Notes under the pieces: generated by a model
The model's input: the letters and a program-made list of their open reading frames with translations, nothing else
What the model was told of the DNA's origin: nothing
Database searches by the model: none
Part shown: positions 5,064-55,813 of the stretch, piece after piece
How positions within the stretch are numbered: position 1 is the first letter of the stretch
How the letters are laid out: every line of letters starts with the position of its first letter
NCBI GenBank assembly: GCA_016191145.1
Contig: JACPPD010000007.1
Span: 91,158-155,157 of the forward strand
Origin: Ignavibacteria bacterium
Lineage (GTDB): Bacteria > Bacteroidota > Ignavibacteria > Kapaibacteriales > Kapaibacteriaceae
DNA: 64,000 nucleotides
Reading direction: 5' to 3'
Program-made: the position numbers and the translations under genes

Positions 5064-5948
5064 ATGGCTACACTACGTGAAACACGAACAAGGATCAGCT
5101 CTGTTCGAAACATTTCAAAGATCACACAGGCAATGCGAATGGTTGCTGCAGCCAAACTGCGGCGCGCAGAAGAAGCCATCAAGTCGGCGCGGCCATTTGC
5201 GCGGCAACTGGAAAAGATTTTGTTCAACATTGCAAAAGCCGAAACCGATTTCGTACACCCATTTCTCGAAAAGCGTGCAGCGGTAAATTCTGTTCTGCTG
5301 ATTGTTGTTTCCAGCGATCGGGGATTATGCGGAGCATTTAATGCAAATCTGATGAGGGTGGTTGGCACACGGAATGTACTGCTGAGAAAAGACAATCCAA
5401 ACGTAGACATATCTGTTGTTACCGTTGGCAAGCGCGCCATTAATTCAATGCGCCGAACTAAAGAAAAAATTCTTGCTGAATTTCCCGACGTATTCAACAA
5501 GCTTGATTATTCAGTTGCAGTTGAATTATCGCACATTGCCGTTAATGCATTTACTACCGGTCACGCAGATAGGATCGAAATCATTCACAACGAATTCGTT
5601 TCTATCATCAGGCAGGAAGTCAAGGTTCTTCAGCTTCTCCCGATCGAACCCGCCGTGGTGAAGGGCGAAACAACTAAGGAAGCCAACGTCGATTACATTT
5701 TTGAACCTACAAGAGCACTGCTGGATGCAATTCTGCCGCTGTATTTGAACGCTCAGGTCTGGCGCACATTGCTGGATTCCAACGCTGCAGAGCACGGAGC
5801 CCGGATGATGGCTATGGATAACGCCACAACGAATGCAAGAGATCTCATCAAGGCGCTGCAGCTCATGTATAACCGGGAACGCCAGGCAGCCATCACTAAA
5901 GAGATGCTGGAAATTGTTGGCGGAGCTGAAGCTCTTTCAAGCACGTAA
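5064..5948 (+). CDS. atpG: F0F1 ATP synthase subunit gamma
   Basis: 294 aa. N-terminus MATLRETRTRISSVRNISKITQAMRMVAAAKLRRAEE and C-terminus ITKEMLEIVGGAEAL are classic gamma-subunit signatures. Confidence 0.9.
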   Translation: MATLRETRTRISSVRNISKITQAMRMVAAAKLRRAEEAIKSARPFARQLEKILFNIAKAETDFVHPFLEKRAAVNSVLLIVVSSDRGLCGAFNANLMRVVGTRNVLLRKDNPNVDISVVTVGKRAINSMRRTKEKILAEFPDVFNKLDYSVAVELSHIAVNAFTTGHADRIEIIHNEFVSIIRQEVKVLQLLPIEPAVVKGETTKEANVDYIFEPTRALLDAILPLYLNAQVWRTLLDSNAAEHGARMMAMDNATTNARDLIKALQLMYNRERQAAITKEMLEIVGGAEALSST

Positions 5949-13271: not shown

Positions 13272-13674
13272 AGAATTGGCACGGCTCTTGTGAGGAAGCG
13301 ATTGCCATTAGGGTCGATCTTCGATAAGTACCGTTATTACGGGGGATAATCGGAGGATCCTGGGTGTGAACCTGTGAAATTGTCTTCACAGGTGGTGTGC
13401 TATCAGAATTTCGAAAGTAAGCTTTGACGCAGATGTTACTTAAGGGCACAATCGTTGGAAATGAAATCATCCTTAGTGGATGTGTGCATTTCACGTTTGG
13501 CGCAATCATCTGTCAGAGGTATTTTAGCGGCGCATTGGAGGCACCGCTCACCCGGTTGGGGGGTGGTGTGCGCTATTCCATCATTGGGGGCGGATTACAG
13601 GCAGTGTATGAGAGATAGATACTTTTGGGCCGGACCGGGCAAAACCGTTCCGAACAAACATTTGGAAAATGCAT

Positions 13675-13700
13675 GGCGCCGAAGGCGCCTTTTGGTGTTT
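13675..13700 (+). terminator. GC hairpin plus T-tract (terminator/attenuator-like) in leader of giant gene
   Basis: GGCGCC-GAA-GGCGCC followed by TTTTGGTGTTT, about 80 nt upstream of the SD-supported start at 13779. Confidence 0.4.
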
Positions 13701-13778
13701 ACTAATAAAATGGATAATCAAAAAAGTTTTGAAAACAAGACAGTCATTATCAATCGTAACTCTTTCTCGGAGGATTGT

Positions 13779-16700
13779 ATGAATCGTTTCGATTCCGCGT
13801 TATCTGCGCGGCAACGGGGCGGTGGGTTTGTTGAACGGTTCAAGGCCGTAGCAGCCACGCTGTTGTCGTTGCTTGTTGTGGGTTCTATTGCGGCATCGGC
13901 TCAGCCGACCCTTACACACGTCGGACCGCCACCGCCAGCAGCAGTATTCACCGCAGGTCAAATTTGCTCGGGCCAGACACCACAATTCGAAGTAGGTACC
14001 ACAGCCAAGCCTGTAACAACCTACAACTTGGTTGAGGGGAACGTAGCGCTCGAAGCCGAAGTTGGAGCCACTGATATCATTGGCAACCTCGGCGACGACC
14101 AGGTGTGGAAACTACCCGCGGGCGATATTCAGGCGGCAGCAGGGGGGAACTTTATATTCGAATTCTTTGGTCAGCCGCACAATCTCTCCACAGAGGGTTT
14201 GTTTATCGGTACAAACGGATTTGTTCGGTTCCAGGATGGCGATCCCACCAACGATGCAAACGTTGAACTGCTCGAAACGGGAATCATTGCCCAAAACATT
14301 CCGAATGTGGCCGGACCAAACGGTGCCGCCTACTTCCTGAATATTGACCTTGCACCACAGGCTGGTGAAGATGTCGACTGGGAAATTCAGGATGTTAATG
14401 GTGGTGATGCCCTGGTTCTCACGTTCCGGGATGTGTCTCAGTACAATCCTCTGCTAGTGTATCCATACCAGCAGGTTGAAGTACAGATTATTCTGTATCC
14501 GAACAATCACCCAAACACGCCAAATATGATCGAAGTCCGCCTGGGCAACTGGCCGGACCCGAACGTTATCCCTGCGCGCGTGCACACTATTGGTGTTGAG
14601 AACCAGTGCGGAACTGTTGCCTATGCTGATGCAGACCACAACGCCGATACATGGGCTGTTGCCAATGCTGCAGGCGAAGTAGCTGGCTATTCGATAACAT
14701 TCGATCCTCAGGCAGGAGCATCTCAAACGCTGACAACGACTCTCTATGTTGTTGGACCAAACGGTGTTATTAATACCTATTCAACATCGAGTGCGTCACC
14801 GGATGATATTACCAGATCTGGAGCTACGGCTGGTACAACGGGAATACCTGTTAGTATAACGTCGAATACTGCAGTTACGTCTGTAACTCCTGCAGGGCAG
14901 CTTACATTTTTTGCAGTCGTTGAATACGAAGACTGTATAATTGAAGTAACAAACACTGTAACGCTTACCGTAAATCCAACACCCACTGCGGTAACCATTA
15001 CCGGACCGGTGAACGTTTGTGTTGGTACTAACTATAATTACAATGTCCCGCTAAACAACGGTAATACGTATTCGTGGACATCTACCGATGGTTTCGCGAC
15101 GATTACGCCGGCAATACCCACCATTAATGCAAATACCGCAACGGTTAATTGGGCAACCGGATCAAACGGTGGCACAGCTCAGACTCTCACAAGTACGGAA
15201 ACAACGCCGGCAGGATGCCAGGCTGTTCATACTGTTAACGTCACTGTGTACACGGTGCCTAACGGAACCATTTCCGGTCCCACGCCAGTTTGTGCGAATT
15301 CGGCCGGCAATGTGTATTCAATTTCTGGTGGACCGTACGGAGCGTACCAATGGTCGATTACTGGCGCTCCTGCCGGAACTACAACGGGATCAACAACAGG
15401 GACGACGTTTTCCGTAAACTGGGGTGATTTTGCCCAGCCAGGTACTGCTCAATTCCCGCAGGTCAGGGTTACCGTTTCCAACGGTCCTGGCGGCCTGTGC
15501 TCGTTTACCGCAACTCCGCTTGTTGTTACGGTTAACCCGCGTCCACCTGTAAAGACAATCACTGCATCGGATGCTACTCCATGCGTAAACCAGACTATCA
15601 CGTATAGTGTGGGCCTTACCGCTGGCAACAACTATGCATGGACTGCGGCTGGCGGAACCTTCGCCTATACCAGTCCTGGTGCATACGTTAACGGCACACC
15701 TACGCTGAACCTGAATTCGGTTCAGTTGCAGTGGACAAATGCAGGTAGTGGTCGGTCTATGACGGTGAATGAAACAACACCTCAGGGTTGCCTTCGGACA
15801 ACAACGATGTCAGGTATTGTTGTAGAAGCATTACCGACGCCAGTCATTACCGGACCGTCGATTAACGTTTGCGGTTACCTTGCATCTGCCGGTGGCAACC
15901 CATCGTTTAACACTGTTCCTAACCCAATCCAGCACACCTACGCAGTTGCAGTTCCAAATGCATCAAATACGTATGCTTGGTCAATACCTGCAGCTTCAGG
16001 GTATATCGTTTCAGCTGGACCTGGGACACCATCGCCGACGCCGGGACCAGGTATTACATCTGTGTCTGGTCTGAACGTTACGCAGATAACAGTTCGTTGG
16101 AACAACCCGGCTATATCTGTTGCCCGCACTGTTAACGTTACAGAAACATCTGTTAACAATTGTGCAGGAAATGCTCCGACGTTCAACCTTACAGTGGTTC
16201 ATACACCAGAAGCTGCTAACTTCTCACTTGCAGGACCTGGTATTACAACTACCGATCCGTGTGCGAACACAACAGGTGTTATTTACACTGGTACGACAAC
16301 ACTACCGGCTGGAACACTTCAGCAGGTATATGTCCTTGCTGGTGGAACGCTTGTGTCTTCAGTCGATGCTTACCCGAATGTTACGGCAACGGTCAATTGG
16401 GGTAACGCAGCTACAGGAACACTTCGTCACGAAGCCACTGCTCCGACGGGTTGCGTGTCGTACGAAGAGTACGTTATAACAATTCGTCCGCTTCCAGAAG
16501 CCGATATTACAGGACCATCAACGGTCTGCGGTGGAACAACGGGCCAGGTTTATGGCGTTACCAACATCCAGAATGGCCCAATCACTCACAGTTGGTCATT
16601 TGCCAGTAACCCGGGTGGAATCGCATCGTTCCCGGGCGCAACAACGAACTCTACAGTAACGGTTGACTTTGCTAATCCTGGGGCTCAAACGATTGTTGTT

Positions 16701-19700
16701 CTTCAAGACTTCATCACCGGTCCTGGGCCATGGCTGTGCACGAACACCATTACCTACAACATCACCGTTAACCCAACTCCAGCGGCGCCAATTATTGCAG
16801 GCGCCGATGGTGGTGGAACTCCCGAGTATGTCTGCGCTGGCACCACTGAAGGGTACACTGTAACAGGTATAGGTGGTGGTACAACAACCATATCGGTTGT
16901 TGGTGGAACTCCAAGTCAGACAATTTTTGCCGGTGCAGGTCCGTTCAACTTCAACGTTACCTGGGGCTTTGTACCTGGTGGCGGTGCAGGAAGCATAACA
17001 GCCACTATTACACTGAACAACTGCCCAAGTACTCAAACGGTATTTCCAGTTACGGTTTCTCCGCTGCCGGCAGTGCCAATCTTTGAGTATTCTTTGGACA
17101 ACGTCACGTTCAGTACAACAATTCCGCCACTCTGCGTTTATAATGTCCCATTTTATGTTCGAGTACAGAACAGCACGGCAGGCGTAACATACAACTGGAA
17201 TGAATATCCCCAGATCTGCTGGCCTACTGCTTCTGCATCGGATAATCCTGGCGGTGGCACCAACGAATTGTGGACCATTACGAACTGGAACTGTGCGCAC
17301 CCGGCAAACGAGCTTTACATTGTTGCTTACGCACAAGACGATATCACCGGTTGTATTTCTCCTGGAACCGGATTGCCGGCTCCATGGACAGGTTTAGGTG
17401 CACCCTATACCAGCTCGCCAGCAGTCGTTGTTGCCCCGGTTCCGACTCCAGTTATTTCCGGCCCAACAGACGCATGTAATAACGTCTTCGATCCGGCTGG
17501 GATGAATGGAGCGACGGTTGACGCCGATCCTACCTCGTATACCTACACATACTCAACACCGCAAGTAGTTGGCAACTCCTATTCGTGGACTGTTACAAAC
17601 GGTTATGTGGTTGCTACATCAACGGACGGTGGGTCCACATGGACATACCTGAACCCCGTTGCAACAACGAATGGCGCACCAATTCTGAATGCTAATACCG
17701 TTCAGGTAGTGTTCTACGGACCAACACCGGGCAAGGTGAAGGTATCGGAAATTGCTCCGGGCGGATGTCAGGCAACAACCCTCGACTATAACGTAAATCT
17801 GAATCCATTCCCAATAGCGCAGTCTCTGGTATCTTGGTCACCCGAAGTGTGCTCTGGTGATTGGGGACTGTTAGCATCATTTAATTCCGAAGCAACCTTT
17901 ACCTACCGTGTTGAGACTTCGACAGACGGAGGGTCTACGTGGACGCCAACGCCTGGAGTAGGAACGCAGACTGGTAATGGTGGAGGTCTCTTATGGTTTA
18001 TTCCACCAGCATCAATCCCATATACTGCAGTTCCACCGAACATTACAACGTATACATTCAGGATAACTGCTCAGCACACCGCAACGGGTTGTGGATGGTA
18101 TCCAGTGTCGAACACGGATATCATCAACGTTAATCCGAAGCCGGCAGACAACATTCCTGTGGTAAACACCACACCGTTAACCTGCGAAGGTGATAACGTT
18201 GTTGTCGAAGTTGGCGATGGCGGCACACCATCGGAAAGCTGGGTGCAGTATCAGCTCATGCGTCGGCAGATCGCAGATCTTTCGACAGGAGCACCGATTG
18301 CACCAACACCGTACACATACGTTGGCAGTCCCCAAGTTGGTAATGGTATCGGGTCCATTCAGTTAATTGACAACACCGCTCCGGCAGGGGGCTATCCACT
18401 CCTGAATGCCGACGTATATCAATACCAAGTTGAAGCGGTAACAGACATGGCTCCTGCGCCGCCGCCCAATATTCAGTGCACAACTATGCTCGCCCAGACC
18501 GTCACTGAAAGAGTCTTTGCTCTTCCATTGGCACAGGTGGTGAGCTACACGCCAAATCCAATTTGCTGGGAAGCTGATCTTACGGTTGATCTTTCCGGTT
18601 CGCAGGATGGCGTTGAATATGAAATTCTCCGCGACGGTTTGAGCATGGCACCACCAGTTATCGTTGATGGTAATGGCGGACCTGTTCAAGTTATCGTACC
18701 TGCAGTGCAAGTGATGCCATCGAATCCGCTTTTCCCAACGGCTGTTGTGTTCTCTACACAGGCACGCTTGCGTACAGAGGCATTCCCACCATACGACAGA
18801 CCTATTCCTCCGTCGTCGTGTCCCAATACTTTCGGCTACGAAGAAGTTACCGTCAATCCAAAACCAGTGGCAGTTATCAATGGACCAGACGTAGCATGCG
18901 GCCCTTCTACAGTTGATTACACACCAGGACCATGGTGGGGTGGCTGGCCTTCTACATACGACTGGGCAATCCTGTTTGCAGCCGATCCGTATCCGGCCCC
19001 ACACAGCGATCCGCCTGTGGGCACGACTCCGCTATTTGCGAACAACACAGGATTTGGTACTGTAGATCCGTTCACAGTAGACTGGGGTGTTCACCTCTTG
19101 AGCTGCGATGGAACGTACAACCCGATTACGGTTGTGCTTCAGATGATTGAAACGAACCTGTTCAATTGTCCGGATACTGCATTCAAGGAAATCACAATCG
19201 AGCCTACACTCAGCGACGCTGTTATCAGCGGACCTACTCAGGCTTGTATCTATGGTGGTTTCGAACAACACCTAACAACGTACACCATCAGCCGTCCGAA
19301 TCCATGCATCTTCCCGGCAGGAACGACCTTCTTATGGAGCATGCCAACCGGACCGGTAATTGGCGTCATTCGCTCAGGTCAGGGTACTCCGACCATCGTT
19401 GTTGAGTGGACGCAAACTGGCGGCACTAACATCGGTACTATTCAGAGCACTGTAACACTTCCGCCGTCGCACGGTGGTTGTGCAACAACTGTGACCTACG
19501 ATGTGATTGTATATCCGCTGCCGCAGCCAATCGTGGTTGGACCCACATCGGTTTGCCAGGGCGATCAGAACGTGATTTACACTGCCGACTACTATGCCAC
19601 GGACAATTATGAGTGGATCGTTGTTGGCGGTACAATCAACGGCGGTTCCGGCTCAGGCACTATTGCCGATCCAGGTTACCTATCCAATCTTGCAGCCAAC

Positions 19701-22700
19701 ACAATCTCTGTTAACTGGCTTGATCAGGCAAATCCGAATGCCTATGTAAGACTCAATCAGGTAAGCGCAGCAGGTTGCTACAACACCAACACATTGCAAG
19801 TGACCGTGAACCCAACACCGACACCGGTAATTGGTGGTCCGGCAATCGTTTGCGACAACAGCGTTTATCAGTACTCTACGCAGAGCAACGCGCCCAACAA
19901 CGTGTATCAGTGGACGATCAGCGGTAATGCCGTTATCAACAATGGTGCAAATCAGGCGACCGTGACAATTCAAACGGGCGCCATCGGTGGAGGAACGCAA
20001 TTTGTTCTCGAGCTTACGGAAACCGTACAGGCTACCACCTGCACCAAGACCGTATCGCGAACCATTGACATTGTTGAGAAGCCGAATCCAACAATCACCC
20101 GCATTACTGCAGGTGGCGCAGTTGGTGGTGCATGCCTCAATCAGACAATCGAGTATGGCGATACCGATCCGGTAGCTGGCAACCCAGGGTACTCCTACAT
20201 GTGGACGGTGTATAACGGTTCAATCAGTGGATCGAACACTGCATCAACTGTGATTGTAACATGGAATACCATTGGCACCGGAACTGTAACACTTGCCAAG
20301 TGGCACACCAGCTCGCAGTGTACAACCACTGTAAGCATGGACGTCAACATCACCGCTCCGCCACAGCCGGCCATTTCCGGTCCGCTGCAGGTTTGCGGTG
20401 AAGGCGAGTACACATACAGCACTCCGTTTGTTGTTGGCAACACCTATGAATGGACAATCAGCGGCAACGGTACTATTACCTCCGGCGCAAACACGAATGC
20501 GGCCGTTATCAAATTTGATAATCCGCTTCCTGGATCAACGCTGAGTGCCGACATAACGGTTACAGAAAGCACAACACTCAGTGGATGTGAAGCAAGTGCC
20601 GTGGTAGAGGTTACTATCAACTACCAGCCACAGGTCCAAAACATAGATCGAATCGCTCCTGCAGGTCCAGTTGGACAAGCATGTCTGATGGATCAGATTA
20701 CCTATGCACTGCCAAACAACAACCCTGGTTCCACCTATCAGTGGACAGTTACCGGTGGCTCCATCGTTGGCAGCTCAACGAACTATGATGTAACCGTACA
20801 GTGGACCAGCGCTGGTGCACAGGTTCTCACAGTAGTTGAAACGGACGCATCTGGAGCCTGCGAAGCAACGTCGACGCTGAACGTCTCCGTGACGTACAAA
20901 CCAACACCTGCTATCTCGGGACCAGTGGCGCCTTGTACAGATGTTGATATCACGTACAGCACGCCAGCAGTGCCTGGCAGCACTTATCAGTGGTCGATTA
21001 CGCCGGGTGTTGGATACATTATGCTTACGGGTACAACATCCAATTACATTACCGTGAGATTCACAGCAGCTGGACCGTACACGATAACGCTTACCGAAGC
21101 AAACGGTCCGTGCGAAGTCACAACTTCTGTTGATATCAACGTTACCCAGCTTCCAACGCCCCTTATCACCAGAGTTTCGCCTCCTGGTAATGCGCAGTTG
21201 GCTTGCGAAGGCGACATTATCACCTATTCAACACCCGAAGTTGCAGGTAATTCCTACCTCTGGACGGTTGTTGGCGGTGGTACAATTCTCGGCTCCAACA
21301 CTTCGAATGAAGTAACAGTACAGTGGGTATCGCAGGGTACACATGCCCTGACAGTTCTCGAGACGACTCCGGGTGGCGGCTGCTTCGATGAAGCCACGCT
21401 TTGGGTTACAGTTACCTACAAGCCGACACCGAACATCAATGGTGCCAACGTTGCTTGTATCGAGAAGATCCTCACGTACTACACACCGGCAGTTGCAGGC
21501 GACACCTATGAATGGAGCATCACACCTGCCAATTCATTCTCTCCAGTTGTTGGCTATCCGAATTCAAACAGCATTACAGTTCAGTGGATTCTCCCTGGTC
21601 TGCATACTGTGACAGTAACTGAAACAAACGTTGCTGGCGGATGTGTGACAACCGTCTCCATGGATGTTCAGGTGAATGAAATTCCTGCACCATTCATCAC
21701 ATCGCCGACAGGTTATGGCAACCCTCCGGGACGCCGACCTGGCATCGTTTGCAACTTCAGTACGCACACGTATACAACGTTCCCAACACCTGGCAACACC
21801 TTCCACTTCTTTGTGACAGGTGGTACCATCATCGGCAACCCATACACTAACCAAGTTGTGGTTGAATGGGGTCCGGCTGGTATAGGTACAATCTGGGTAG
21901 TTGAGACAGTTCCAGGATCCGACTGCATCACGACGAAGCTCGACTCCATCGACATTCGTCCGACACCTGCACCGACCATCACTGGATCCAGCAATCCATG
22001 CGGCAACAGTCTCCAAACCTATTCAACGCCATTCGTTGCTGGTAACAGCTATGAGTGGACAGTTGTGGGAGCTGCATCTTGGTTTGTTGTTCCTGGTAAT
22101 CCGAATCAGATTCGTGTAACGTGGAATAGCCCAGTATGGCCAAACACTATTGCTGGCAGCGTCAGCGTTACCGAATGGGTCACGGATGTACTGCCTGATA
22201 AGTCATGCATCAATTCAACAACCCTTAACGTCACGGTACGCCCGAACCCACCAGTACCGACCATTACCGATACGTCTGTGGTTTGCGCAACCGACCTAAC
22301 GGATACACCGGCTACGATTAATCAGGTCACCTATTCATCGAGCGATCCGGGTGGCGTAAGCTTCCTGTGGACTATCTCGTCGAATGGTACCATCATCGGC
22401 AGCTCGACTTCTTCTTCGGTTCAGGTACAGTGGACAAACACGGGATTGACGCCGACGACAGGCACAATCACTGTTCGCCACACCTCGATACCTTGGGGTT
22501 GCGAAAACACTGCTTCGATGACGGTGACGATCAATCCATTGCCACGTCCTAACATTACTGGCGACCTCTCTGCTTGCCAGAACACAATCCATGCATACAG
22601 TACTCCTGGCTTACCAGGGCATTCTTACAGCTGGACTGTAGGTGGTGGGAACATCATTCGTTCGGGACAGGGAACACCAAACGTTATGGTTGAATGGACA

Positions 22701-24173
22701 CTTCCGGGTACCTATACTCTTACAGTGTCTGAAACCAACACGTACCGTTGTACTGCACAGGATCAGATCAGCGTGACCGTGAATGAGCTTCCGGATGTGA
22801 CGATCACTGCATCAGGTCCGACCACGTTCTGTCAGGGTGGCGACGTCACTCTCACTGCACCAATCGGATTTGAATCATACGTGTGGTCTACTGGCGAGAC
22901 GGCTCGCAGCATCGTGGTTCGTACTACTGGTCAGTATTGGGTTAAGGTCACCAACGAGTTTGGCTGCTCCAACAACTCCGATACAATTACCATTAACGTC
23001 TTCCCAAGCACGCTGCCAATCATTACTGTAAGCGGACCAACAACATTCTGCGAAGGTGGCTCTGTTGTTCTCACCGCTCCGTCGGGCTTCTCTAACTATC
23101 TGTGGTCGACAGGCGAAACATCGCAGTCAATCACGGTTACGCAGAGCGGCACCTACACAGTAACAATTGCAGACAACAACGGATGTACTGGAACATCAAC
23201 AGAAGTCGATGTTGTTGTGAACCCGAAACCGGCTCCAATCCTGACAGTTGTTGGTTCAACAACAGTTTGCTCAGGGGATAGCGTAGAAGTAAGGGCACCG
23301 GCTGGATACGTTTCCTACACGTGGATTTCAACGTCAGCTACCAACTATGGAACTGGACGCACGATCTTCGTTAGCCAGCAAGACGAAATCTACGTTGAGG
23401 TTGTTGATCTGAATGGATGCGTTGGCCAGTCGGATACGGTCAGCATCGAAGTTAGTCAGATTACACAGCCAGTAGTTATTCCAAGCGGACCAACAACGTT
23501 CTGCGAAGGCGGTTCTGTTGTACTCTCAGCTCCAGCAGGGTTTGCGTCCTACATCTGGTCGAATGGTGCTACAACACGCGAGATAACAGTCGAAGATGGC
23601 GGTGAATACTCAGTAACCGTCGTGAATGCTGTTCTCTGCGTGGCTGCTTCATCCAAGACAGAAGTAACGGTGAATCCGCTTCCGGAACGGCCATCAATCG
23701 AGCGCAGAGGAGATACTTTAAAGGCAATCTCCCCTGTAGCTGAAGCTTGGCAGTGGTACAAAAATGGAACTGAGATCACTGGCGCAAATGCTTCGTTCTT
23801 CATCGTTACGCAGGCAGGTATCTACCGCGTAGCAATCAAAGATGACAACACATGCTCGGCCATTTCAAATGGATTCGACGTGATTCTTACCGGTCTTGAT
23901 GATGATGTGGTTGCAGGAAAGGTCGGAGACATCAGACTCTACCCGAACCCAACAACCGGTATGTTCACTATCGAAGCTGATATTGCAAAATCCGGTGTGG
24001 TTTCCATCGAACTCGTCAACACTGTTGGCGAAATTGTGAAGACGATCACCGACGATTCGCAAGGCGGAGCGTTCAAGAAATCCATCGACATGGGAACACT
24101 TGCAAGTGGTGTATATAATGTAGTCGTCACGAGTGCTAACCAGCGCTGGACGGTACGGTTGGTTCGTCAGTAA
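13779..24173 (+). CDS. giant (~3460 aa) cell-surface adhesin-like protein with ~30 tandem Ig-like modules and T9SS C-terminal sorting domain
   Basis: GGAGG 5 nt upstream of ATG 13779, then a signal peptide (RFKAVAATLLSLLVVGSIAASA-QP). A roughly 400-aa N-terminal domain of unknown family is followed by about 26 repeats of ~85-90 aa (consensus P.P.ITGP..VC.G..Y.Y......G.TY.W.V.GG.I..G.......V.W...G...LTV.ET...GC, two Cys each). Four to five modules of a second type follow (GPTTFCEGGSV.LTAP.GF.SY.WS.GET...I.V...G.Y.V.V....GC). The C-terminus (LYPNPTTGMFTIEADIAKSGVVSIELVNTVGEIVKT...LASGVYNVVV...) matches the Por/T9SS CTD pattern. The ORF-track start at 13455 lies upstream of the hairpin and SD and is rejected. 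Confidence 0.85.
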   Translation: MNRFDSALSARQRGGGFVERFKAVAATLLSLLVVGSIAASAQPTLTHVGPPPPAAVFTAGQICSGQTPQFEVGTTAKPVTTYNLVEGNVALEAEVGATDIIGNLGDDQVWKLPAGDIQAAAGGNFIFEFFGQPHNLSTEGLFIGTNGFVRFQDGDPTNDANVELLETGIIAQNIPNVAGPNGAAYFLNIDLAPQAGEDVDWEIQDVNGGDALVLTFRDVSQYNPLLVYPYQQVEVQIILYPNNHPNTPNMIEVRLGNWPDPNVIPARVHTIGVENQCGTVAYADADHNADTWAVANAAGEVAGYSITFDPQAGASQTLTTTLYVVGPNGVINTYSTSSASPDDITRSGATAGTTGIPVSITSNTAVTSVTPAGQLTFFAVVEYEDCIIEVTNTVTLTVNPTPTAVTITGPVNVCVGTNYNYNVPLNNGNTYSWTSTDGFATITPAIPTINANTATVNWATGSNGGTAQTLTSTETTPAGCQAVHTVNVTVYTVPNGTISGPTPVCANSAGNVYSISGGPYGAYQWSITGAPAGTTTGSTTGTTFSVNWGDFAQPGTAQFPQVRVTVSNGPGGLCSFTATPLVVTVNPRPPVKTITASDATPCVNQTITYSVGLTAGNNYAWTAAGGTFAYTSPGAYVNGTPTLNLNSVQLQWTNAGSGRSMTVNETTPQGCLRTTTMSGIVVEALPTPVITGPSINVCGYLASAGGNPSFNTVPNPIQHTYAVAVPNASNTYAWSIPAASGYIVSAGPGTPSPTPGPGITSVSGLNVTQITVRWNNPAISVARTVNVTETSVNNCAGNAPTFNLTVVHTPEAANFSLAGPGITTTDPCANTTGVIYTGTTTLPAGTLQQVYVLAGGTLVSSVDAYPNVTATVNWGNAATGTLRHEATAPTGCVSYEEYVITIRPLPEADITGPSTVCGGTTGQVYGVTNIQNGPITHSWSFASNPGGIASFPGATTNSTVTVDFANPGAQTIVVLQDFITGPGPWLCTNTITYNITVNPTPAAPIIAGADGGGTPEYVCAGTTEGYTVTGIGGGTTTISVVGGTPSQTIFAGAGPFNFNVTWGFVPGGGAGSITATITLNNCPSTQTVFPVTVSPLPAVPIFEYSLDNVTFSTTIPPLCVYNVPFYVRVQNSTAGVTYNWNEYPQICWPTASASDNPGGGTNELWTITNWNCAHPANELYIVAYAQDDITGCISPGTGLPAPWTGLGAPYTSSPAVVVAPVPTPVISGPTDACNNVFDPAGMNGATVDADPTSYTYTYSTPQVVGNSYSWTVTNGYVVATSTDGGSTWTYLNPVATTNGAPILNANTVQVVFYGPTPGKVKVSEIAPGGCQATTLDYNVNLNPFPIAQSLVSWSPEVCSGDWGLLASFNSEATFTYRVETSTDGGSTWTPTPGVGTQTGNGGGLLWFIPPASIPYTAVPPNITTYTFRITAQHTATGCGWYPVSNTDIINVNPKPADNIPVVNTTPLTCEGDNVVVEVGDGGTPSESWVQYQLMRRQIADLSTGAPIAPTPYTYVGSPQVGNGIGSIQLIDNTAPAGGYPLLNADVYQYQVEAVTDMAPAPPPNIQCTTMLAQTVTERVFALPLAQVVSYTPNPICWEADLTVDLSGSQDGVEYEILRDGLSMAPPVIVDGNGGPVQVIVPAVQVMPSNPLFPTAVVFSTQARLRTEAFPPYDRPIPPSSCPNTFGYEEVTVNPKPVAVINGPDVACGPSTVDYTPGPWWGGWPSTYDWAILFAADPYPAPHSDPPVGTTPLFANNTGFGTVDPFTVDWGVHLLSCDGTYNPITVVLQMIETNLFNCPDTAFKEITIEPTLSDAVISGPTQACIYGGFEQHLTTYTISRPNPCIFPAGTTFLWSMPTGPVIGVIRSGQGTPTIVVEWTQTGGTNIGTIQSTVTLPPSHGGCATTVTYDVIVYPLPQPIVVGPTSVCQGDQNVIYTADYYATDNYEWIVVGGTINGGSGSGTIADPGYLSNLAANTISVNWLDQANPNAYVRLNQVSAAGCYNTNTLQVTVNPTPTPVIGGPAIVCDNSVYQYSTQSNAPNNVYQWTISGNAVINNGANQATVTIQTGAIGGGTQFVLELTETVQATTCTKTVSRTIDIVEKPNPTITRITAGGAVGGACLNQTIEYGDTDPVAGNPGYSYMWTVYNGSISGSNTASTVIVTWNTIGTGTVTLAKWHTSSQCTTTVSMDVNITAPPQPAISGPLQVCGEGEYTYSTPFVVGNTYEWTISGNGTITSGANTNAAVIKFDNPLPGSTLSADITVTESTTLSGCEASAVVEVTINYQPQVQNIDRIAPAGPVGQACLMDQITYALPNNNPGSTYQWTVTGGSIVGSSTNYDVTVQWTSAGAQVLTVVETDASGACEATSTLNVSVTYKPTPAISGPVAPCTDVDITYSTPAVPGSTYQWSITPGVGYIMLTGTTSNYITVRFTAAGPYTITLTEANGPCEVTTSVDINVTQLPTPLITRVSPPGNAQLACEGDIITYSTPEVAGNSYLWTVVGGGTILGSNTSNEVTVQWVSQGTHALTVLETTPGGGCFDEATLWVTVTYKPTPNINGANVACIEKILTYYTPAVAGDTYEWSITPANSFSPVVGYPNSNSITVQWILPGLHTVTVTETNVAGGCVTTVSMDVQVNEIPAPFITSPTGYGNPPGRRPGIVCNFSTHTYTTFPTPGNTFHFFVTGGTIIGNPYTNQVVVEWGPAGIGTIWVVETVPGSDCITTKLDSIDIRPTPAPTITGSSNPCGNSLQTYSTPFVAGNSYEWTVVGAASWFVVPGNPNQIRVTWNSPVWPNTIAGSVSVTEWVTDVLPDKSCINSTTLNVTVRPNPPVPTITDTSVVCATDLTDTPATINQVTYSSSDPGGVSFLWTISSNGTIIGSSTSSSVQVQWTNTGLTPTTGTITVRHTSIPWGCENTASMTVTINPLPRPNITGDLSACQNTIHAYSTPGLPGHSYSWTVGGGNIIRSGQGTPNVMVEWTLPGTYTLTVSETNTYRCTAQDQISVTVNELPDVTITASGPTTFCQGGDVTLTAPIGFESYVWSTGETARSIVVRTTGQYWVKVTNEFGCSNNSDTITINVFPSTLPIITVSGPTTFCEGGSVVLTAPSGFSNYLWSTGETSQSITVTQSGTYTVTIADNNGCTGTSTEVDVVVNPKPAPILTVVGSTTVCSGDSVEVRAPAGYVSYTWISTSATNYGTGRTIFVSQQDEIYVEVVDLNGCVGQSDTVSIEVSQITQPVVIPSGPTTFCEGGSVVLSAPAGFASYIWSNGATTREITVEDGGEYSVTVVNAVLCVAASSKTEVTVNPLPERPSIERRGDTLKAISPVAEAWQWYKNGTEITGANASFFIVTQAGIYRVAIKDDNTCSAISNGFDVILTGLDDDVVAGKVGDIRLYPNPTTGMFTIEADIAKSGVVSIELVNTVGEIVKTITDDSQGGAFKKSIDMGTLASGVYNVVVTSANQRWTVRLVRQ

Positions 24174-24431: not shown

Positions 24432-24471
24432 AGTGGTCGTAGTGCCGGGTGCCAAGTGCCAGGGAGTAATT

Positions 24472-25335
24472 ATGCAGGATTTATTCTTAGAGCTTATTGG
24501 AAACCGTGCAAAGTTCCAATTGCCATTTGTGTTGCTATTGTGCCTGCCTATTATGCAGGTATTGGCTGCATCGGGTGGCGTATCCCGTCAGAGCGCCTTC
24601 GGGTGCGGTCCCGGCGGATGCCATGGACCTACGGCCAGCTCCCAGACATCTGCTCGCATTAAGGAGGAGGAGTATGGTAGGCTGTCTTTTGAGCCGAATG
24701 AAAAGAGGAAGCTAACTCTTATTATAAATAACAATAACCGTCCGGCAGTCGGCTGCAATATTTCGGTTAAGACTACGAAGGGCGGCTACACAAATGCCGG
24801 GACACTTTCGACAATTCAGGGACAGGGACTGAGATTGTTGATTGGCGAGCTCACGCATGATTTCCAGCCTAAGGCTATGGCCTACGGTGAAGTACAATTT
24901 GAATTCGAATGGACGGCGCCACCTTCTGCAGGCACATACTTTCTGCATGCTGCAGTGAATGCCGTCAATATGAATGGTATTGCCGACGGCAACGACCAGT
25001 GGCAGGTAATGCAGGCAGTCGAAATCACCGTTTCGCCAACTAATTCTGTTTTCGAACAGAACAGCTCCAATCAGGCGCAAATCACGCCCCTTCCCGCTCA
25101 CGAACAAGTTAGCATTCACGCTCTGGTAGGGGGCGATGAAGCTGTGGATCTAAGAATCTTCGACATCTCTGGAAATATTGTTAAAGTAGCGTCGATCCGG
25201 CCGATGAATAACAATGTTGACTTTCTGTGGAATGGAACCGACGACGCTGATAGGCCTCTCCCGTCAGGCTTGTATCCTTTCAATATTGTTGCACCTGAAG
25301 CCGTCATCCGAGGCATCATTCTCTTTGAACGGTAA
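24472..25335 (+). CDS. secreted protein of unknown function with T9SS C-terminal sorting domain
   Basis: GGGAG SD 5 nt upstream, then a signal peptide (FVLLLCLPIMQVLAA). The C-terminal ~75 aa (VDLRIFDISGNIVKV...FLWNGTDDADRPLPSGLYPFNIV) fit the T9SS CTD pattern. Contains an unusual CGPGGCH motif. Confidence 0.6.
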   Translation: MQDLFLELIGNRAKFQLPFVLLLCLPIMQVLAASGGVSRQSAFGCGPGGCHGPTASSQTSARIKEEEYGRLSFEPNEKRKLTLIINNNNRPAVGCNISVKTTKGGYTNAGTLSTIQGQGLRLLIGELTHDFQPKAMAYGEVQFEFEWTAPPSAGTYFLHAAVNAVNMNGIADGNDQWQVMQAVEITVSPTNSVFEQNSSNQAQITPLPAHEQVSIHALVGGDEAVDLRIFDISGNIVKVASIRPMNNNVDFLWNGTDDADRPLPSGLYPFNIVAPEAVIRGIILFER

Positions 25336-25343
25336 CTGATTTT

Positions 25344-27668
25344 GTGAATGACAAGAAACCTATACTACATCAATCATTATCGGTTGGACTTCTAACACTG
25401 ATTGTATTCCTGTGTACAGCAGAAGTGAATGCGCAGTGGAAGAAACTTAACCTTCCTGGACAATATGCCAGTGGTTACTATCTCGATGTCTTCTTCCTAA
25501 AAGATAATCCCAACTATGGTTGGGCCTGCAGTATTGAAGGCTTTGTTGTAAGGACGACAGATGGTGGAGTAACCTGGCAGGGGAGTCGCACTTCCCGAAG
25601 CTTTTTGGAAAGTGTTCAGTTTTTAACGCCAACAATTGGCTATACATCGGGGCCTGCGGGTATTTATAGGTCGGACGACGGTGGCGCAACATGGAAAGAC
25701 ATTACACCACTTTCGTTAAATCTAAACCCAGGGAGCGGATTCCAGAACTCGCCATGGGGAAGCTATTTTATTAACCAAAATGAAGGTGTATTCCTTGCAG
25801 ATGGGTGCGGAAGTGTTCAGAGATTTTATCGCACAACCGACGGTGGCCAGAACTGGCAATACACAGTGGATAATATTGCCAATGGAAAACTCTCCGATGC
25901 TCTGATATTCCGAGACGGTTCTGGATTTGCTGTTGGAAGCGGCGTGCTTTGGAGAACAACCGACTATGGCGCGAACTGGGTCTTTCATTCATTCACCGGA
26001 TCTCGCATTTGGACAGAGGAACTAACATTCTATGCAGGCAGCATTCTGCTTCCTACTGCCGGGAATGACTGCGACGGCGCTCCAACCGGGATCGGCTCGC
26101 TGCGATACTCGACAGATAATGGTTTTAACTTTCGAGAGTTTCAAACCAATGCTAACATGTTTGGCTCCTTCCTACTCGATAAAAATCGGGGTTGGGGTGT
26201 GGGTAGTAACGCATCCGTTTATTATACCGAAGATGCCGGAAGAACCTGGGTATTGAGGAACTGTGGTATCAAGGGAGATATGGACGATATCTTCTTCCTC
26301 GACGACACAACAGGATGGGTTGTGGGCAATGGAATATACCGTTCAAACTTTAATCAACCCGAAAATCCTGTTCTGATTGAACCAGATTCAAACTTGATTG
26401 AATTGTGTAAAGGCGATTCAGTTTTTATCAGGGCTTCAGATGGTTTCTCCCAATACCGATGGAACGATGGAGTTTGGTCTCAAGGAAGATTAGTAAGTGC
26501 AGAAGGAACGTACATTGTAAGCGCATTTAATGAATTAACGTGCAACATTTTGTACGACACGTTAACCATAAAGTATAAACCCAGCAAGGATCCTGTAATT
26601 GAAGCCAGCAAGACAGAGATTTGTGAAGGAGATTCCATTGAACTGCGACTGGTTGGAGACTTCGTTTCACAGTCGTGGTCGACAAAGGATTCATCAAAGT
26701 CGATACGAATACGAAAGAGTGGAGTTTATTCGGTTACCACATTAGACATCTTTGGCTGCAGGCGAACAGCGTACAGTCCCTTTATCACGGTTCGCCCTTT
26801 ACCAGAACCAGTGATTACTGCAAACCGTAGTACAACAATTTGTATTGATGAAACAGTAACGCTGTCTGCCCCGCCCGGTTTAGATAAGTATGTTTGGTCG
26901 AATGGTTCAACCGAGCGGGCAATAGTAGTTAGCAAAGCTGGCAAGTATGCAGTGACTGTAACTAATGAATATGGCTGTACTGCAACATCGGACTCGGTTA
27001 GCATTACCGTACTTGATACAAAAAATAAAATTGAAATAAATCTCAGTAGTACAAATGGTGATTTTATTATTGCTGATCAAATTGTTGGGGAGAAAAGCTG
27101 TAATTATCTCACAATTCGCAACGTATCGTTAACGGAAGATCTCGTAATTGCTAAGCCTTGGATAATCGGCAATGTGATGTTTTCCATTCCTCAAGCACAG
27201 TTGCCAATTCGTATAGCTCCTCAACAAACCGCCACGCTCGAGCTGTGTGCCTCGGCAATTGACACAGGGTTGATTGAGGATACACTCTATTTGCCAGATA
27301 CATGCTCCCCAACACTAGTACCTTTGAAGACCAGAGGAACGTCGTTGGCATTTGAAGGTACGTCGAGATGCAGCGTTGGCGTTTCGACACTTGTGATCCG
27401 TGCAGGTAAAACATATCGTTTATCTGCCCCTTACCCAATGCCGGCTAATCAGCAGTTTGCCATAGAAGTTGAACCAGCAGCTTCGCAAACAACAGCAAGT
27501 ATGTTTGATGCACTGGGAATCGAACGTGTCCGGGCAAATGTTATTAGATTGGACAAGAATTCGCTCATTGAGTTTCGTACGGACAACCTGCCGGTTGGTG
27601 TTTATCAGGTTGTTATTGAAATTGATGGAGACGTAGTCAAATCGTATACAACGATAATACAGCGGTAA
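25344..27668 (+). CDS. secreted BNR-repeat (sialidase/Ycf48-like beta-propeller) protein with Ig-like modules and T9SS C-terminal domain
   Basis: Signal peptide, then six or more BNR/Asp-box motifs (TTDGGVTW, SDDGGATW, TTDGGQNW, TTDYGANW, STDNGFNF, TEDAGRTW). Three modules are homologous to the type-2 modules of the giant protein (ICIDETVTLSAPPGLDKYVWSNGSTERAIVV..GKYAVTVTNEYGC). The C-terminus is CTD-like (YPMPANQQFAIEV...VGVYQVVIEIDG). Confidence 0.75.
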   Translation: MNDKKPILHQSLSVGLLTLIVFLCTAEVNAQWKKLNLPGQYASGYYLDVFFLKDNPNYGWACSIEGFVVRTTDGGVTWQGSRTSRSFLESVQFLTPTIGYTSGPAGIYRSDDGGATWKDITPLSLNLNPGSGFQNSPWGSYFINQNEGVFLADGCGSVQRFYRTTDGGQNWQYTVDNIANGKLSDALIFRDGSGFAVGSGVLWRTTDYGANWVFHSFTGSRIWTEELTFYAGSILLPTAGNDCDGAPTGIGSLRYSTDNGFNFREFQTNANMFGSFLLDKNRGWGVGSNASVYYTEDAGRTWVLRNCGIKGDMDDIFFLDDTTGWVVGNGIYRSNFNQPENPVLIEPDSNLIELCKGDSVFIRASDGFSQYRWNDGVWSQGRLVSAEGTYIVSAFNELTCNILYDTLTIKYKPSKDPVIEASKTEICEGDSIELRLVGDFVSQSWSTKDSSKSIRIRKSGVYSVTTLDIFGCRRTAYSPFITVRPLPEPVITANRSTTICIDETVTLSAPPGLDKYVWSNGSTERAIVVSKAGKYAVTVTNEYGCTATSDSVSITVLDTKNKIEINLSSTNGDFIIADQIVGEKSCNYLTIRNVSLTEDLVIAKPWIIGNVMFSIPQAQLPIRIAPQQTATLELCASAIDTGLIEDTLYLPDTCSPTLVPLKTRGTSLAFEGTSRCSVGVSTLVIRAGKTYRLSAPYPMPANQQFAIEVEPAASQTTASMFDALGIERVRANVIRLDKNSLIEFRTDNLPVGVYQVVIEIDGDVVKSYTTIIQR

Positions 27669-35133: not shown

Positions 35134-35838
35134 ATGGAAAAGAAGATTTTAGTTGTCGACGACGAGCAAGACATCGTTGACCTCATCTCTTACAACCTAG
35201 GCAAGGAAGGCTACAAGGTTTTCACAGCATCGAATGGCACAAAGGCTGTGGAAGTGGCTACGGCACTGCATCCCGATCTGGTGATCCTCGACATCATGAT
35301 GCCGGGTATGGACGGCTTTGACGTGTGCCGTACTCTTCGTAGGAATGCATCAACGCAGTCCGTAGCAATCATGTTTTTAACTGCAAAATCCGGGGAAATT
35401 GATCAGATACTTGGCCTGGAGCTTGGCGCCGACGACTATATTCAAAAGCCAATCAGTCCGCGGGTTTTAATTGCGCGTGTGAAAACGATTTTGAGAAGAG
35501 GCACGGAAACGGTTCGAACGGAAACGATTGCAGCTCCGGAAATACTGCAGATTGGCGCACTGGAAATCAACCGACAGAACTATACCATCCGCGTCGATAA
35601 AAAGGAAATATTCTTTCCTAAAAAAGAATTCGAACTGCTAGCCTTTCTTGCTGCTAATACTGGCAAAGTATTTTCGCGCGAATCGCTTCTCCGACGGATA
35701 TGGGGAGAAAGCGTCTATGTTATCGATAGAACGGTTGATGTTCACATATCAAAAATTCGCGAAAAAATTGCCCCTTATAGCAGTTGGATAGAAACAGTTA
35801 AAGGTGTTGGTTATCGTTTCAGAGAGCAACTCTCATAA
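35134..35838 (+). CDS. two-component response regulator, OmpR/PhoB family
   Basis: Receiver domain (ILVVDDEQDIV...LDIMMPGMDGF) and winged-helix output (SRESLLRRIWGESVYVIDRTVDVHISKIREKI...VKGVGYRF). Confidence 0.9.
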   Translation: MEKKILVVDDEQDIVDLISYNLGKEGYKVFTASNGTKAVEVATALHPDLVILDIMMPGMDGFDVCRTLRRNASTQSVAIMFLTAKSGEIDQILGLELGADDYIQKPISPRVLIARVKTILRRGTETVRTETIAAPEILQIGALEINRQNYTIRVDKKEIFFPKKEFELLAFLAANTGKVFSRESLLRRIWGESVYVIDRTVDVHISKIREKIAPYSSWIETVKGVGYRFREQLS

Positions 35839-35847
35839 CTTGCATAC

Positions 35848-47053: not shown

Positions 47054-47160
47054 AAATGGTGTTCTACCCTCTGCCATTTGTTCATACCCTTAGGTATCCC
47101 GAAGTTCGTAGCCCTATGAGAGCCAGCTTACTAAAAAATCTATGTACTCCGAAGGAGAAG

Positions 47161-55794: not shown

Positions 55795-55813
55795 TGGAAC
55801 TGATAACCACGCT

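Follow-up and report, generated by a model that had tools for sequence, protein, structure and literature searches.

The giant gene in the window (the whole 64,000-nucleotide stretch of DNA analysed here) encodes a 3,464-residue protein that is probably a cell-surface fibre exported through type IX secretion (T9SS), tethered at its C-terminus and bearing a ligand-binding head at its tip. Profile comparisons show the core of this head to be a remote, divergent homolog of the NIDO (nidogen-like) domain of animal matrix proteins, and the NIDO-like tip is the sole unusual feature of an otherwise ordinary giant bacterial surface protein. Giant T9SS fibres influence the way in which Bacteroidota-type bacteria attach, glide or catch prey. 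To our knowledge detailed work covers SprB and GhpA only, and the family described here adds an example from the Kapabacteria/Ignavibacteria lineage, on which little has been done. The annotation of the protein is solidly improved; current understanding is not overturned, and no new kind of system is proposed.

Reading frame, assembly and orthologs

An uninterrupted open frame spans 13455-24173 on the forward strand of the window. Within it, a single intact 10.4 kb ORF encodes the 3,464-residue product (~348 kDa, pI ~4.1), with exactly the coordinates given for one giant gene in the initial annotation. The protein is already covered by an NCBI record, under a generic name. The gene and the elements that precede it are:

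13496-13527, + strand: promoter-like element of the Bacteroidota type (TTTG at 13496-13499, 20 nt, then TATTTTAG at 13520-13527)
13675-13700, + strand: GC hairpin GGCGCC-GAA-GGCGCC followed by TTTTGGTGTTT, from a terminator scan
13769-13774, + strand: ribosome-binding site (GGAGGA), separated from the ATG by 4 nt, read from the sequence and conserved in the ortholog loci L001 and L002
13779-24173, + strand: giant gene, 3,464 codons plus stop (NCBI MBI2793974.1)

Translation most likely starts at the ATG at 13779, given that GGAGGA lies just ahead of it and that both the ATG and the N-terminal sequence MNRFDSA... are conserved in orthologs. An upstream in-frame ATG at 13608, from which the gene is called in the protein collection, was rejected because the conserved ribosome-binding site and N-terminal sequence belong to 13779. 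This difference in start explains why an exact look-up of the 3,464-residue product returned no record, the collection holding a 3,521-residue version.

An open frame of ~3,500 codons in DNA of ~50% GC cannot have arisen by chance. Repeat arrays in metagenome-assembled genomes (MAGs) are frequently misassembled, and an assembly artefact or decaying pseudogene was considered for this reason; its probability is negligible. The frame, whose breakage in the assembly the initial annotation had named as one observation that would refute it, is open across all 10.4 kb, and a 100% identical protein is present in the independent Logan assembly of SRR12113392. A JGI variant is 95.6% identical across the last 2,024 residues, with one gap. 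Direct DNA repeats within the gene are at most 58 nt long and at most 80% identical; among tandem repeats, TRF detected a 25-nt microrepeat but none with the period of a module. Orthologs are collinear and align end to end (40-69% identity). It is very unlikely that the array has been collapsed or misassembled, and the artefact or pseudogene reading is effectively already refuted.

The orthologs range from 2,910 to 3,744 residues with module order unchanged. Orthologous modules are 31-90% identical, whereas paralogous modules share a mean pairwise identity of only 28.6% (about 29%; maximum 49%), which places the origin of the array before the divergence of the lineages and bears out its earlier description as old and maintained. 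Among orthologs, conservation is higher in the cell-proximal half and variability greater in the distal half, a pattern that an exposed fibre tip would lead one to expect. The giant gene is vertically inherited in the Kapabacteria/Ignavibacteria lineage, and the order of its modules has long been maintained. A word-index search for homologs recovered very little of this family, yielding 1 and later 12 matches; the 40-69% identical orthologs that it missed were recovered by an exhaustive search and a metagenome scan. A scan of genome contigs found one partial ortholog only.

Head, stalk and sorting domain

The protein is divided, from N- to C-terminus, as follows (all on the + strand):

13779-13901, + strand: signal peptide, aa 1-41 (hydropathy and inspection)
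13902-14114, + strand: N1, small beta-rich module, aa 42-112 (AF2)
14115-14693, + strand: divergent NIDO-like core, aa ~113-305 (profile search, hhalign, AF2)
14694-14981, + strand: Ig0, the Ig-like module with which the head ends, aa 306-401
14982-17057, + strand: seven PKD_6 modules, aa 402-1093 (PF19408; iterated HMM built from the modules, E 1e-15 to 1e-21)
17058-17441, + strand: expanded four-Cys module derived from PKD_6, aa 1094-1221 (without Pfam hit)
17442-17798, + strand: a single PKD_6 module carrying long insertions, aa 1222-1340 (module HMM, E 6e-18)
17799-18863, + strand: three atypical Cys-pair modules of ~110-128 aa each, a central insert, aa 1341-1695 (without Pfam hit)
18864-22781, + strand: fourteen PKD_6 modules, aa 1696-3001 (PF19408, module HMM)
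22797-23687, + strand: four Ig_7 modules, aa 3007-3303 (PF19081, 53.2 bits, cut-off 27.3)
23688-23918, + strand: a fifth module, related to Ig_7, aa 3304-3380 (36% identity with Ig_7 module 2, E 4e-8)
23937-24170, + strand: type A T9SS C-terminal sorting domain (CTD), aa 3387-3464 (PF18962, TIGR04183; LYPNPTTG... GVYNVVV... RWTVRLVRQ)

The signal peptide noted earlier is upheld by hydropathy and inspection. Its n-region (MNRFDSA..RQRGGG) is extended and conserved, its hydrophobic core spans aa 23-38, and cleavage is predicted at ASA|Q42; orthologs have a signal peptide as well. Gln occupies the +1 position in all family members with the N-terminus read (P0001-P0006, the shorter relative P0007, and L002), in agreement with the Q-rule of Bacteroidetes (PMC5837995).

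The ~400-residue N-terminal domain had been assigned to no recognised family. It has no Pfam hit, as that description implied, but it is not one domain: the head is a composite of the N1 beta module, the divergent NIDO-like core and an Ig-like module. Structure prediction, which had been suggested for this region, gave a confident AF2 model that is almost all beta (pLDDT 84.6, pTM 0.81). This confidence was reached only with the 13-sequence alignment from the exhaustive search; with a 2-sequence alignment the pLDDT was 32. In N1, strands are predicted at aa 44-88 (pLDDT mostly >80), and modules of the same type are tandemly repeated in the unrelated proteins P0009 and P0014. The core has invariant residues at F125, F127, N146, G147, F151, P180, D190, P193, Q236, G272 and E274.

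The Pfam NIDO model (PF06119) does not match the window protein even at E <= 10, and just one of eight giant-family members reaches E 0.0036 with it. An exhaustive search with the family profile matched 21 proteins at E <= 0.001 among 1.84 billion representatives. Three distant matches, P0013, P0035 and P0040, score 33.4, 35.3 and 41.0 bits with the Pfam NIDO model (gathering score 25), and an HMM built solely from the family scores 50 bits on the same region of P0013. Alignment of the giant-family alignment to Pfam-positive bacterial NIDO proteins by hhalign gives a probability of 98.3% (E 1.9e-14, 145 columns). The family shares with animal NIDO proteins (nidogen, alpha-tectorin, MUC4) and with bacterial PEP-CTERM and other secreted proteins an extracellular location and the signature FxFxFFG...NGxxxF...PNxAIxxxxxDLxP...Q...GxEN. 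It differs from them in lying beyond the reach of the Pfam model and in the placement of the core between two beta modules, at the tip of a T9SS fibre. Distant relatives of the core occur in secreted multidomain proteins, beside Kelch propellers, a fibrinogen-C domain, PEP-CTERM or subtilase, a setting consistent with an extracellular binding module. No solved NIDO-like structure was found, either by sequence (head profile against the PDB) or by fold; PDB matches to MHC class I and PNP oxidase were at chance level and were rejected. The region at aa 42-401, modelled with confidence from 13 sequences, would be a practical object for structure determination and ligand screening.

About 30 tandem Ig-like modules had been described in the stalk, and ~31 of two main kinds were found. 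Searches with PKD models, another suggested check, matched PKD_6 (PF19408) at 158.5 bits (cut-off 25) over 11 stretches, and the iterated module HMM resolved 22 modules, which alternate in an A-B pattern across aa 2107-2726. The earlier count of ~26 divergent Cys-pair modules is met in part by these 22 clear PKD_6 modules; the remainder are not PKD_6 proper and comprise the expanded PKD_6-derived module and the three atypical ones. At the position of the expanded module, the orthologs P0003 and P0006 have an ordinary module of ~95 residues. The atypical modules are weakly similar to other modules, and are conserved position by position in orthologs (45-79% identity). The second type, previously counted as 4-5 modules, consists of four Ig_7 modules (PF19081) and the related module at aa 3304-3380, which also gives weak BiPBP_C and Ig_2 matches. 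The PKD_6 module profile matched no solved structure in the PDB, and hhalign links PKD_6 to Ig_7 weakly (37% probability), so the basis for assuming a beta-sandwich fold in the PKD_6 modules is their assignment to the Pfam family. Across the giant protein, neither N-x-S/T sequons nor the Bacteroidota O-glycosylation motif D-[ST]-[AILVMT] is enriched (for the latter, 7 sites against 11.8 +/- 3.2 expected), and Pfam scans detected no carbohydrate-binding module.

The C-terminus is conserved in orthologs, and the T9SS sorting domain proposed earlier can now be specified as type A, both models being above their cut-offs: PF18962 (cut-off 27) gives 42.2 bits for the full-length protein and 53 bits for its C-terminal piece, and TIGR04183 (cut-off 23) gives 32.4 bits. 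None of the core T9SS genes (sprA, porKLMN, porU/V) lies within the 64-kb window. A PD40+OmpA protein resembling PorE/CHU_0125 is encoded at 55778-57379, with scores of 236-245 bits against curated cut-offs of 600-620. This gene and two further T9SS-type cargo genes directly downstream of the giant gene suggest that the organism uses the T9SS route.

Proposed function of the probable fibre and its relation to known systems

Adhesion is the function that we infer for the giant protein, by analogy; its export, tethering and extension, and the nature of its ligand, would be as follows. Following what is established for the T9SS (PMC10202324), the protein would be exported by the Sec pathway, with cleavage exposing Gln42, and would fold in the periplasm. 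The type A CTD would be recognised by the T9SS and the protein moved across the outer membrane, where a PorU-type sortase would cut off the CTD and the new C-terminus would be tethered to anionic LPS, or the protein released. Some 33 Ig-type modules placed end to end would make up a stalk roughly 100-150 nm long, a scale taken from GhpA, which measures 240 nm with 52 Ig repeats plus its hook. The stalk is probably stiffened by the conserved Cys pair found in nearly every module. At its cell-distal end it would hold the compact head (N1, NIDO-like core, Ig0), which would be the ligand-binding part, most likely for an extracellular polymer or the surface of another cell. This proposal draws on the NIDO domain of alpha-tectorin, for which binding to collagenous matrix has been reported (PMC10802356). 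Animal matrix binding is the sole functional precedent for a head that Pfam leaves unannotated.

Tethering is not the only fate of such cargo: a significant subset of type A proteins ends up in the medium instead of being anchored (PMC10202324). The protein could then serve as a matrix or biofilm scaffold, its CTD cleaved, the fibre shed, and polymers or cells cross-linked through the head and Ig modules. Matrix organisation is the precedent set by animal NIDO proteins (PMC10802356), and a very acidic protein in which Thr, Ser and Gly are abundant would suit this role. Sequence features, however, do not separate release from anchoring, and the tight module order and near-constant ortholog length are better explained by a fibre of defined reach; release as a scaffold is held to be unlikely.

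Among the closest known systems is GhpA (grappling hook protein A) of Aureispira sp. CCB-QB1 (PDB 9flp and related; 10.1101/2024.01.29.577165), likewise a giant T9SS substrate. Its layout agrees with that of the window protein: a Sec signal peptide and a distal head at the N-terminus, then a long stem whose Ig-like repeats have conserved cysteines, and a sorting domain at the C-terminus. The Ig_7 profile matches the cryoEM-solved GhpA stem (9flp) with E 5e-74, and these modules are clear homologs of the stem repeats; this match is limited to the 4-5 C-terminal modules. Several parallel protomers might, as in the GhpA heptamer, pack into a stiff appendage, constant in length, for catching prey or particles, with the NIDO-like head replacing the hook, and the strongly conserved length and better-conserved proximal modules would suit lateral packing. 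Only ~5 of ~33 modules are of the GhpA type, however; the stalk is mostly PKD_6, and the 22-module PKD_6 profile does not match GhpA. The head profile has no match to GhpA at E <= 1, although the Ig-like stretch at aa 355-451 aligns weakly to GhpA 1185-1282, and the head of GhpA itself is a 1,400-residue hook in a protein of 5,898 residues (3,464 here). The genes ghpB (PorP-like) and ghpC (PorE-like) have no adjoining counterparts, the PorE-like gene being 31 kb away, and the window contains no genes for type VI secretion. The unenriched O-glycosylation motif leaves a GhpA-like glycan decoration unsupported. A hook of this build is very improbable for the window protein. More loosely, it is tempting, though quite unlikely to be right, to see a Kapabacteria counterpart of the Aureispira grappling hook, a multi-chain, rigid, fixed-length T9SS appendage that catches cells or particles with a NIDO tip; if true, the animal NIDO matrix domain would for the first time have a prokaryotic relative that is tractable and open to structural study.

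SprB of Flavobacterium johnsoniae, to which the initial annotation had likened the protein, is likewise a filamentous surface protein of very large size, repetitive and secreted by the T9SS. As a statement of family membership this likeness was not sustained. SprB has SprB repeats, a type B CTD and a dependence on the adjacent sprF. Pfam searches for SprB repeats (PF13573) gave no match in the whole protein at E <= 0.1 or in four pieces of it at E <= 10, there is no type B CTD (PF13585/TIGR04131), and no PorP/SprF-like gene is adjacent, the neighbours encoding choice-of-anchor V and BNR proteins. These differences also weigh against a motile adhesin carried by the gliding machinery in the manner of SprB or RemA, as does the lack of gld genes within the window. 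We know of no gliding in Kapabacteria. RemA carries a lectin domain and is much smaller; the head here is NIDO-like, and no RemA-type lectin domain was detected. RemA and other type A surface adhesins of Bacteroidota share with the protein the type A CTD (PF18962/TIGR04183), Ig-type repeats and the expected passage by PorV/PorU to tethering at the C-terminus (PMC10202324). What speaks for gliding is that a giant T9SS cargo has Ig-type repeats and that its CTD is of the type found in RemA. A gliding role is nonetheless very unlikely.

The preferred reading, a tethered fibre with a ligand-binding head, has a parallel in design in giant repeat adhesins of the type I secretion system (T1SS; SiiE, LapA/MpIBP type), whose long Ig-like stalk likewise distances ligand-binding domains from the cell. 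Those proteins are retained by their N-terminal end and bind through C-terminal regions, so that their polarity is opposite to that of the T9SS protein described here, and their repeats are Ca-binding BIg repeats in contrast to the Cys-pair PKD_6 and Ig_7 modules.

Two conserved neighbours follow the giant gene:

24433-25335, + strand: dn1, choice-of-anchor V domain and C-terminal FlgD_ig (CTD-like) domain
25344-27668, + strand: dn2, BNR/Ycf48-like propeller, Ig_7-like modules and T9SS CTD

The dn1 product matches NF041895 with 84 bits (cut-off 42). Most ortholog loci keep the order giant gene, dn1, dn2 (dn1 in most of L002-L013, with no dn1 match in L010 or L011; dn2 with 41-54% identity in L002-L013). 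This order, the BNR, Sortilin-Vps10 and F510_1955-glycosylhydrolase-like similarities of dn2 and its T9SS CTD, and a TonB-dependent receptor gene nearby would fit a substrate-capture fibre for polysaccharide use, holding cells on the polymer, with dn2 as a possible glycoside hydrolase. Yet the dn2 matches are far under the curated cut-offs (69 against 326 bits, 36 against 175), and the giant protein lacks a detectable carbohydrate-binding module. The giant gene is flanked by housekeeping genes, and the whole neighbourhood, including paaA/D and obg, the gene upstream of the giant gene, is equally syntenic, so that synteny says little on function and the linkage may reflect vertical inheritance only. 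Substrate capture is hardly probable at all.

The upstream leader

The promoter-like element at 13496-13527 is conserved in alignments of the window, L001 and L002. It fits what we take to be the TTTG/TAnnTTTG consensus of Bacteroidota promoters, a type outside the coverage of the sigma-70 scanner used on the leader, and is regarded as a candidate promoter. No Rfam family matched the window or the leader. The hairpin at 13675-13700 lies ~80 nt ahead of the start codon, within the conserved leader, and is invariant across three diverged genomes. It looks like an intrinsic terminator, and may act as an attenuator or mark the end of a small RNA. The conserved, structured leader with its terminator hairpin may regulate the giant gene by attenuation.

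The gene, its leader and its module architecture

The giant gene (13779-24173, + strand) lies in a frame open from 13455 to 24173 and encodes a 3,464-aa product. NCBI lists it under accession MBI2793974.1 with the name 'T9SS type A sorting domain-containing protein [Ignavibacteria bacterium]'; the MAG contig that carries it is 212 kb long. ATG 13779, the start chosen in the initial annotation, is likely the true start. GGAGGA lies 4 nt 5' of it, and the start-codon surroundings and MNRFDSA... N-terminus are kept in a Kapaibacterium MAG (locus L001, protein P0001) and a metagenome contig (locus L002), whose proteins are just 44-50% identical to the window protein. The concern that the frame might be broken in the assembly is answered by an independent Logan assembly of SRR12113392, in which the encoded protein matches at 100% identity and has its start assigned to the upstream in-frame ATG 13608. 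A JGI variant, aligned with a single gap, is 95.6% identical across the C-terminal 2,024 residues. At the module period TRF found no tandem DNA repeats; its sole find was a 25-nt microrepeat. Direct DNA repeats reach at most 58 nt, at ≤80% identity. This rules out misassembly as the source of the module array.

Despite the divergence of the proteins, the ~290-nt leader (13490-13778; ~4490-4773 in L001, ~160-451 in L002) is conserved at the DNA level across the three genomes. It contains a Bacteroidota-type promoter-like element (TTTG-N20-TATTTTAG), a conserved element (GGCGTATGA) and, at 13675-13700, an invariant GC hairpin with T-run that resembles an intrinsic terminator ~80 nt 5' of the ATG. 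RNAalifold, run on these three sequences only, gave 39 base pairs, with compensatory changes at 12; Rfam returned no family match for the leader, which could be an attenuator or small RNA. The signal peptide (13779-13904, aa 1-42) has a conserved long n-region, M-N/S-R-F/L-D-S-A ... R-Q-R-G-G, common to most orthologs. Its predicted cleavage site, ASA|Q42, places Gln at +1 in every ortholog whose N-terminus was read and is consistent with the Bacteroidetes Q-rule of Gln at that position (PMC5837995), despite the Ignavibacteria/Kapabacteria lineage label.

Thr (14.4%), Val, Gly and Pro are abundant in the protein and Lys is scarce (0.8%); most of its 68 cysteines occur as evenly spaced pairs. 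Scanned whole, it matched PKD_6 (PF19408; 158 bits in 11 stretches) and Por_Secre_tail in Pfam, and the type A sorting domain TIGR04183 in NCBIfam; the C-terminal piece scanned alone added four Ig_7 modules (PF19081, 53 bits). A module HMM, seeded with nine clear copies and then iterated over the protein, raised the PKD_6 count to 22.

Stalk modules and sorting domain of the giant protein (gene on the + strand)
aa 402-1093: first block of seven PKD_6 modules (iterated HMM)
aa 1094-1221 (window 17058-17441): expanded four-Cys module, 128 aa, with two extra cysteines
aa 1222-1340: single PKD_6 module (iterated HMM)
aa 1341-1695: three atypical Cys-pair modules of ~110-128 aa each, with no Pfam assignment
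aa 1696-3001: last block of fourteen PKD_6 modules (iterated HMM)
aa 3007-3303: four Ig_7 modules (PF19081)
aa 3304-3380: fifth, Ig_7-related module (36% identity to Ig_7 module 2, E 4e-8)
aa 3387-3464: C-terminal sorting domain, CTD (Por_Secre_tail, TIGR04183)

The earlier counts of ~26 modules of one type and 4-5 of a second were thus correct (22 PKD_6, the expanded module and three atypical ones; four Ig_7 and one related). The 128-aa form at aa 1094-1221 is shared with the closest ortholog. It is a lineage-specific expansion, since two more distant orthologs hold an ordinary PKD_6-like module of ~95 aa there.

The composite head and its NIDO-like core

The N-terminal ~400 aa had been described as one domain of unrecognised family. 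The first 414 aa indeed gave zero Pfam matches, but the head (aa 42-401) is composite. Its first ~70 residues (aa 42-112) resemble a module tandemly repeated in two other proteins, P0009 and P0014, and aa 306-401 behave as an Ig-like module. A word-index search with the head found one partial ortholog and nothing else. When 1.84 billion representatives were searched exhaustively with the profile, 21 matched at E ≤ 0.001. The head is present in full in five giant proteins (2,910-3,744 aa) and in part in a shorter relative, P0007; the remaining matches include unrelated secreted proteins aligned at the core only (profile positions ~120-300).

Three core-only proteins, P0013 from the exhaustive search and P0035 and P0040 from a later one, pass the Pfam NIDO (PF06119) gathering score of 25, with 33.4, 35.3 and 41.0 bits. 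Profile-profile comparison of the giant family alone with these three gave 98.3% probability (E 1.9e-14, 145 columns), and both groups carry the signature FxFxFFG, NGxxxF, PNxAIxxxxxDLxP, Q, GxEN. Run directly, the NIDO model did not match the window protein and reached one of eight giant-family members, at E 0.0036 only. Judged from these comparisons, the core is a remote relative of NIDO. In distant bacterial relatives it adjoins Kelch propellers, a fibrinogen-C domain, a subtilase or a PEP-CTERM anchor, all extracellular settings. The structure prediction proposed for this region, an AF2 model of aa 43-402 from 13 sequences, is confident and nearly all-beta (pLDDT 84.6, pTM 0.81), and its high pTM points to a single compact unit in which all three parts pack together.

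Age of the array

The PKD_6 modules share a mean pairwise identity of 28.6% (maximum 49%). Across aa 2107-2726 (window 20097-21956) two subtypes alternate, with best matches at i+2 (e.g., 49% and 46% identity), a pattern that indicates an ancient two-module super-repeat within the array. Orthologs align from end to end with the protein: P0002 (69% identity, 3,496 aa), P0003 (49%, 3,422 aa), P0006 (40%, 3,744 aa) and the L002 product (43.6%). Per-module identity between orthologs is 31-90% and exceeds the paralogous average in nearly every module; conservation is higher in the C-terminal, cell-proximal half than in the N-terminal half. Given these identities and the end-to-end alignment, the array predates the split of the ortholog lineages and has been held in register since, which bears out the earlier view of an old, maintained array. 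Scanning metagenomes with the C-terminal region turned up 411 relatives, of which the closest dozen are orthologs with open frames of 3,447 to >3,646 aa as far as the retrieved DNA reaches. The giant family is small and restricted to Kapabacteria-like genomes.

Proposed role, known systems and neighbouring genes

By sequence criteria the product is a genuine type A T9SS cargo as well as a PKD_6/Ig_7 repeat protein, in line with the overall description in the initial annotation. Giant T9SS Ig-repeat surface proteins are a well-known class, of which this is a previously uncharacterised member; what is new is that its head is composite with a NIDO-like core, that the array is demonstrably old, and that the family is small and restricted. 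A type A CTD sends a Sec-exported, folded periplasmic protein through the SprA/Sov translocon, after which PorV and the PorU sortase take off the CTD; the cargo then either has its new C-terminus joined to anionic LPS or is set free (PMC10202324). The giant protein would likewise be exported by Sec, cleaved at ASA|Q42, fold in the periplasm and cross the outer membrane via T9SS by its type A CTD; PorV/PorU would then remove the CTD and couple the new C-terminus to anionic LPS or release the protein. Because type A polarity leaves the C-terminus at the cell, the NIDO-like head would sit distally on a stalk of ~33 Ig-type modules. Scaling from the Aureispira grappling hook protein GhpA, 240 nm with 52 Ig repeats and a hook (10.1101/2024.01.29.577165), suggests a fibre length of the order of 100-150 nm. 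The sole functional precedent for NIDO is alpha-tectorin, which is reported to bind matrix or collagen (PMC10802356).

In view of the T9SS polarity, this precedent and the extracellular settings of the bacterial relatives, we consider an adhesin-type fibre, tethered and tipped with a binding head, the probable role. A shed matrix scaffold is the alternative that would correspond to release rather than LPS coupling. Likeness to SprB, the Flavobacterium johnsoniae gliding adhesin, had also been proposed, but SprB repeats (by HMM), a type B CTD and an sprF-like neighbour were all sought and all absent, which speaks against a gliding adhesin. A multimeric hook like GhpA draws on the Ig_7 profile, which matches GhpA at E 5e-74. 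The PKD_6 profile had no match at all in the PDB, and sites fitting the Bacteroidota O-glycosylation motif show no enrichment in the protein (7 vs 11.8 expected). The head profile has no GhpA match; aa 355-451, from the C-terminal half of the head's Ig-like module into the start of the first PKD_6 module, align weakly to GhpA 1185-1282. No PorP/SprF-like or PorE-like gene adjoins the giant gene. The protein resembles GhpA in layout without belonging to its family.

A substrate-capture fibre could act with dn2, the second of two T9SS-type cargo genes directly 3' (24433-27668). The first, dn1, encodes a choice-of-anchor V domain and FlgD_ig-type C-terminal domain; dn2 encodes a BNR/Ycf48-like propeller, Ig_7-like modules and Por_Secre_tail. 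Of the ortholog loci, 12/12 have dn2 after the giant gene and 10/12 have dn1, with no dn1 match found in L010 or L011; the order giant-dn1-dn2-paaA-paaD is kept in most of L002-L013. On the 5' side lie ATP synthase genes, radA, an ECF-type sigma factor gene, an unknown gene and obg, and radA-sigma-unknown-obg-giant recurs in L001. Since the housekeeping flanks are equally syntenic, the conserved order appears to show vertical inheritance rather than a functional operon.

A PD40+OmpA protein, PorE/CHU_0125-like, is encoded 31 kb from the giant gene (55778-57379); at 236-245 bits it falls short of the curated cut-offs of these families, and it may serve as a T9SS-associated peptidoglycan anchor. 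Elsewhere in the window, an NAD-dependent epimerase/dehydratase gene (4087-5052) splits the atp operon between alpha (2528-4078) and gamma (5064-5948), an unusual interruption. Two large AAA_16/STAND-type NTPases, one with TPR repeats, are encoded at 39790-41739 (-) and 47056-49395 (+), near dnaK and an aquaporin gene. A two-component system (35134-36933) lies between genes for two surface-protein-like products, a 1,176-aa PKD and Ig_7 protein with no CTD match reported (31514-35044, -) and a 959-aa BNR_2 protein (36926-39805, -).
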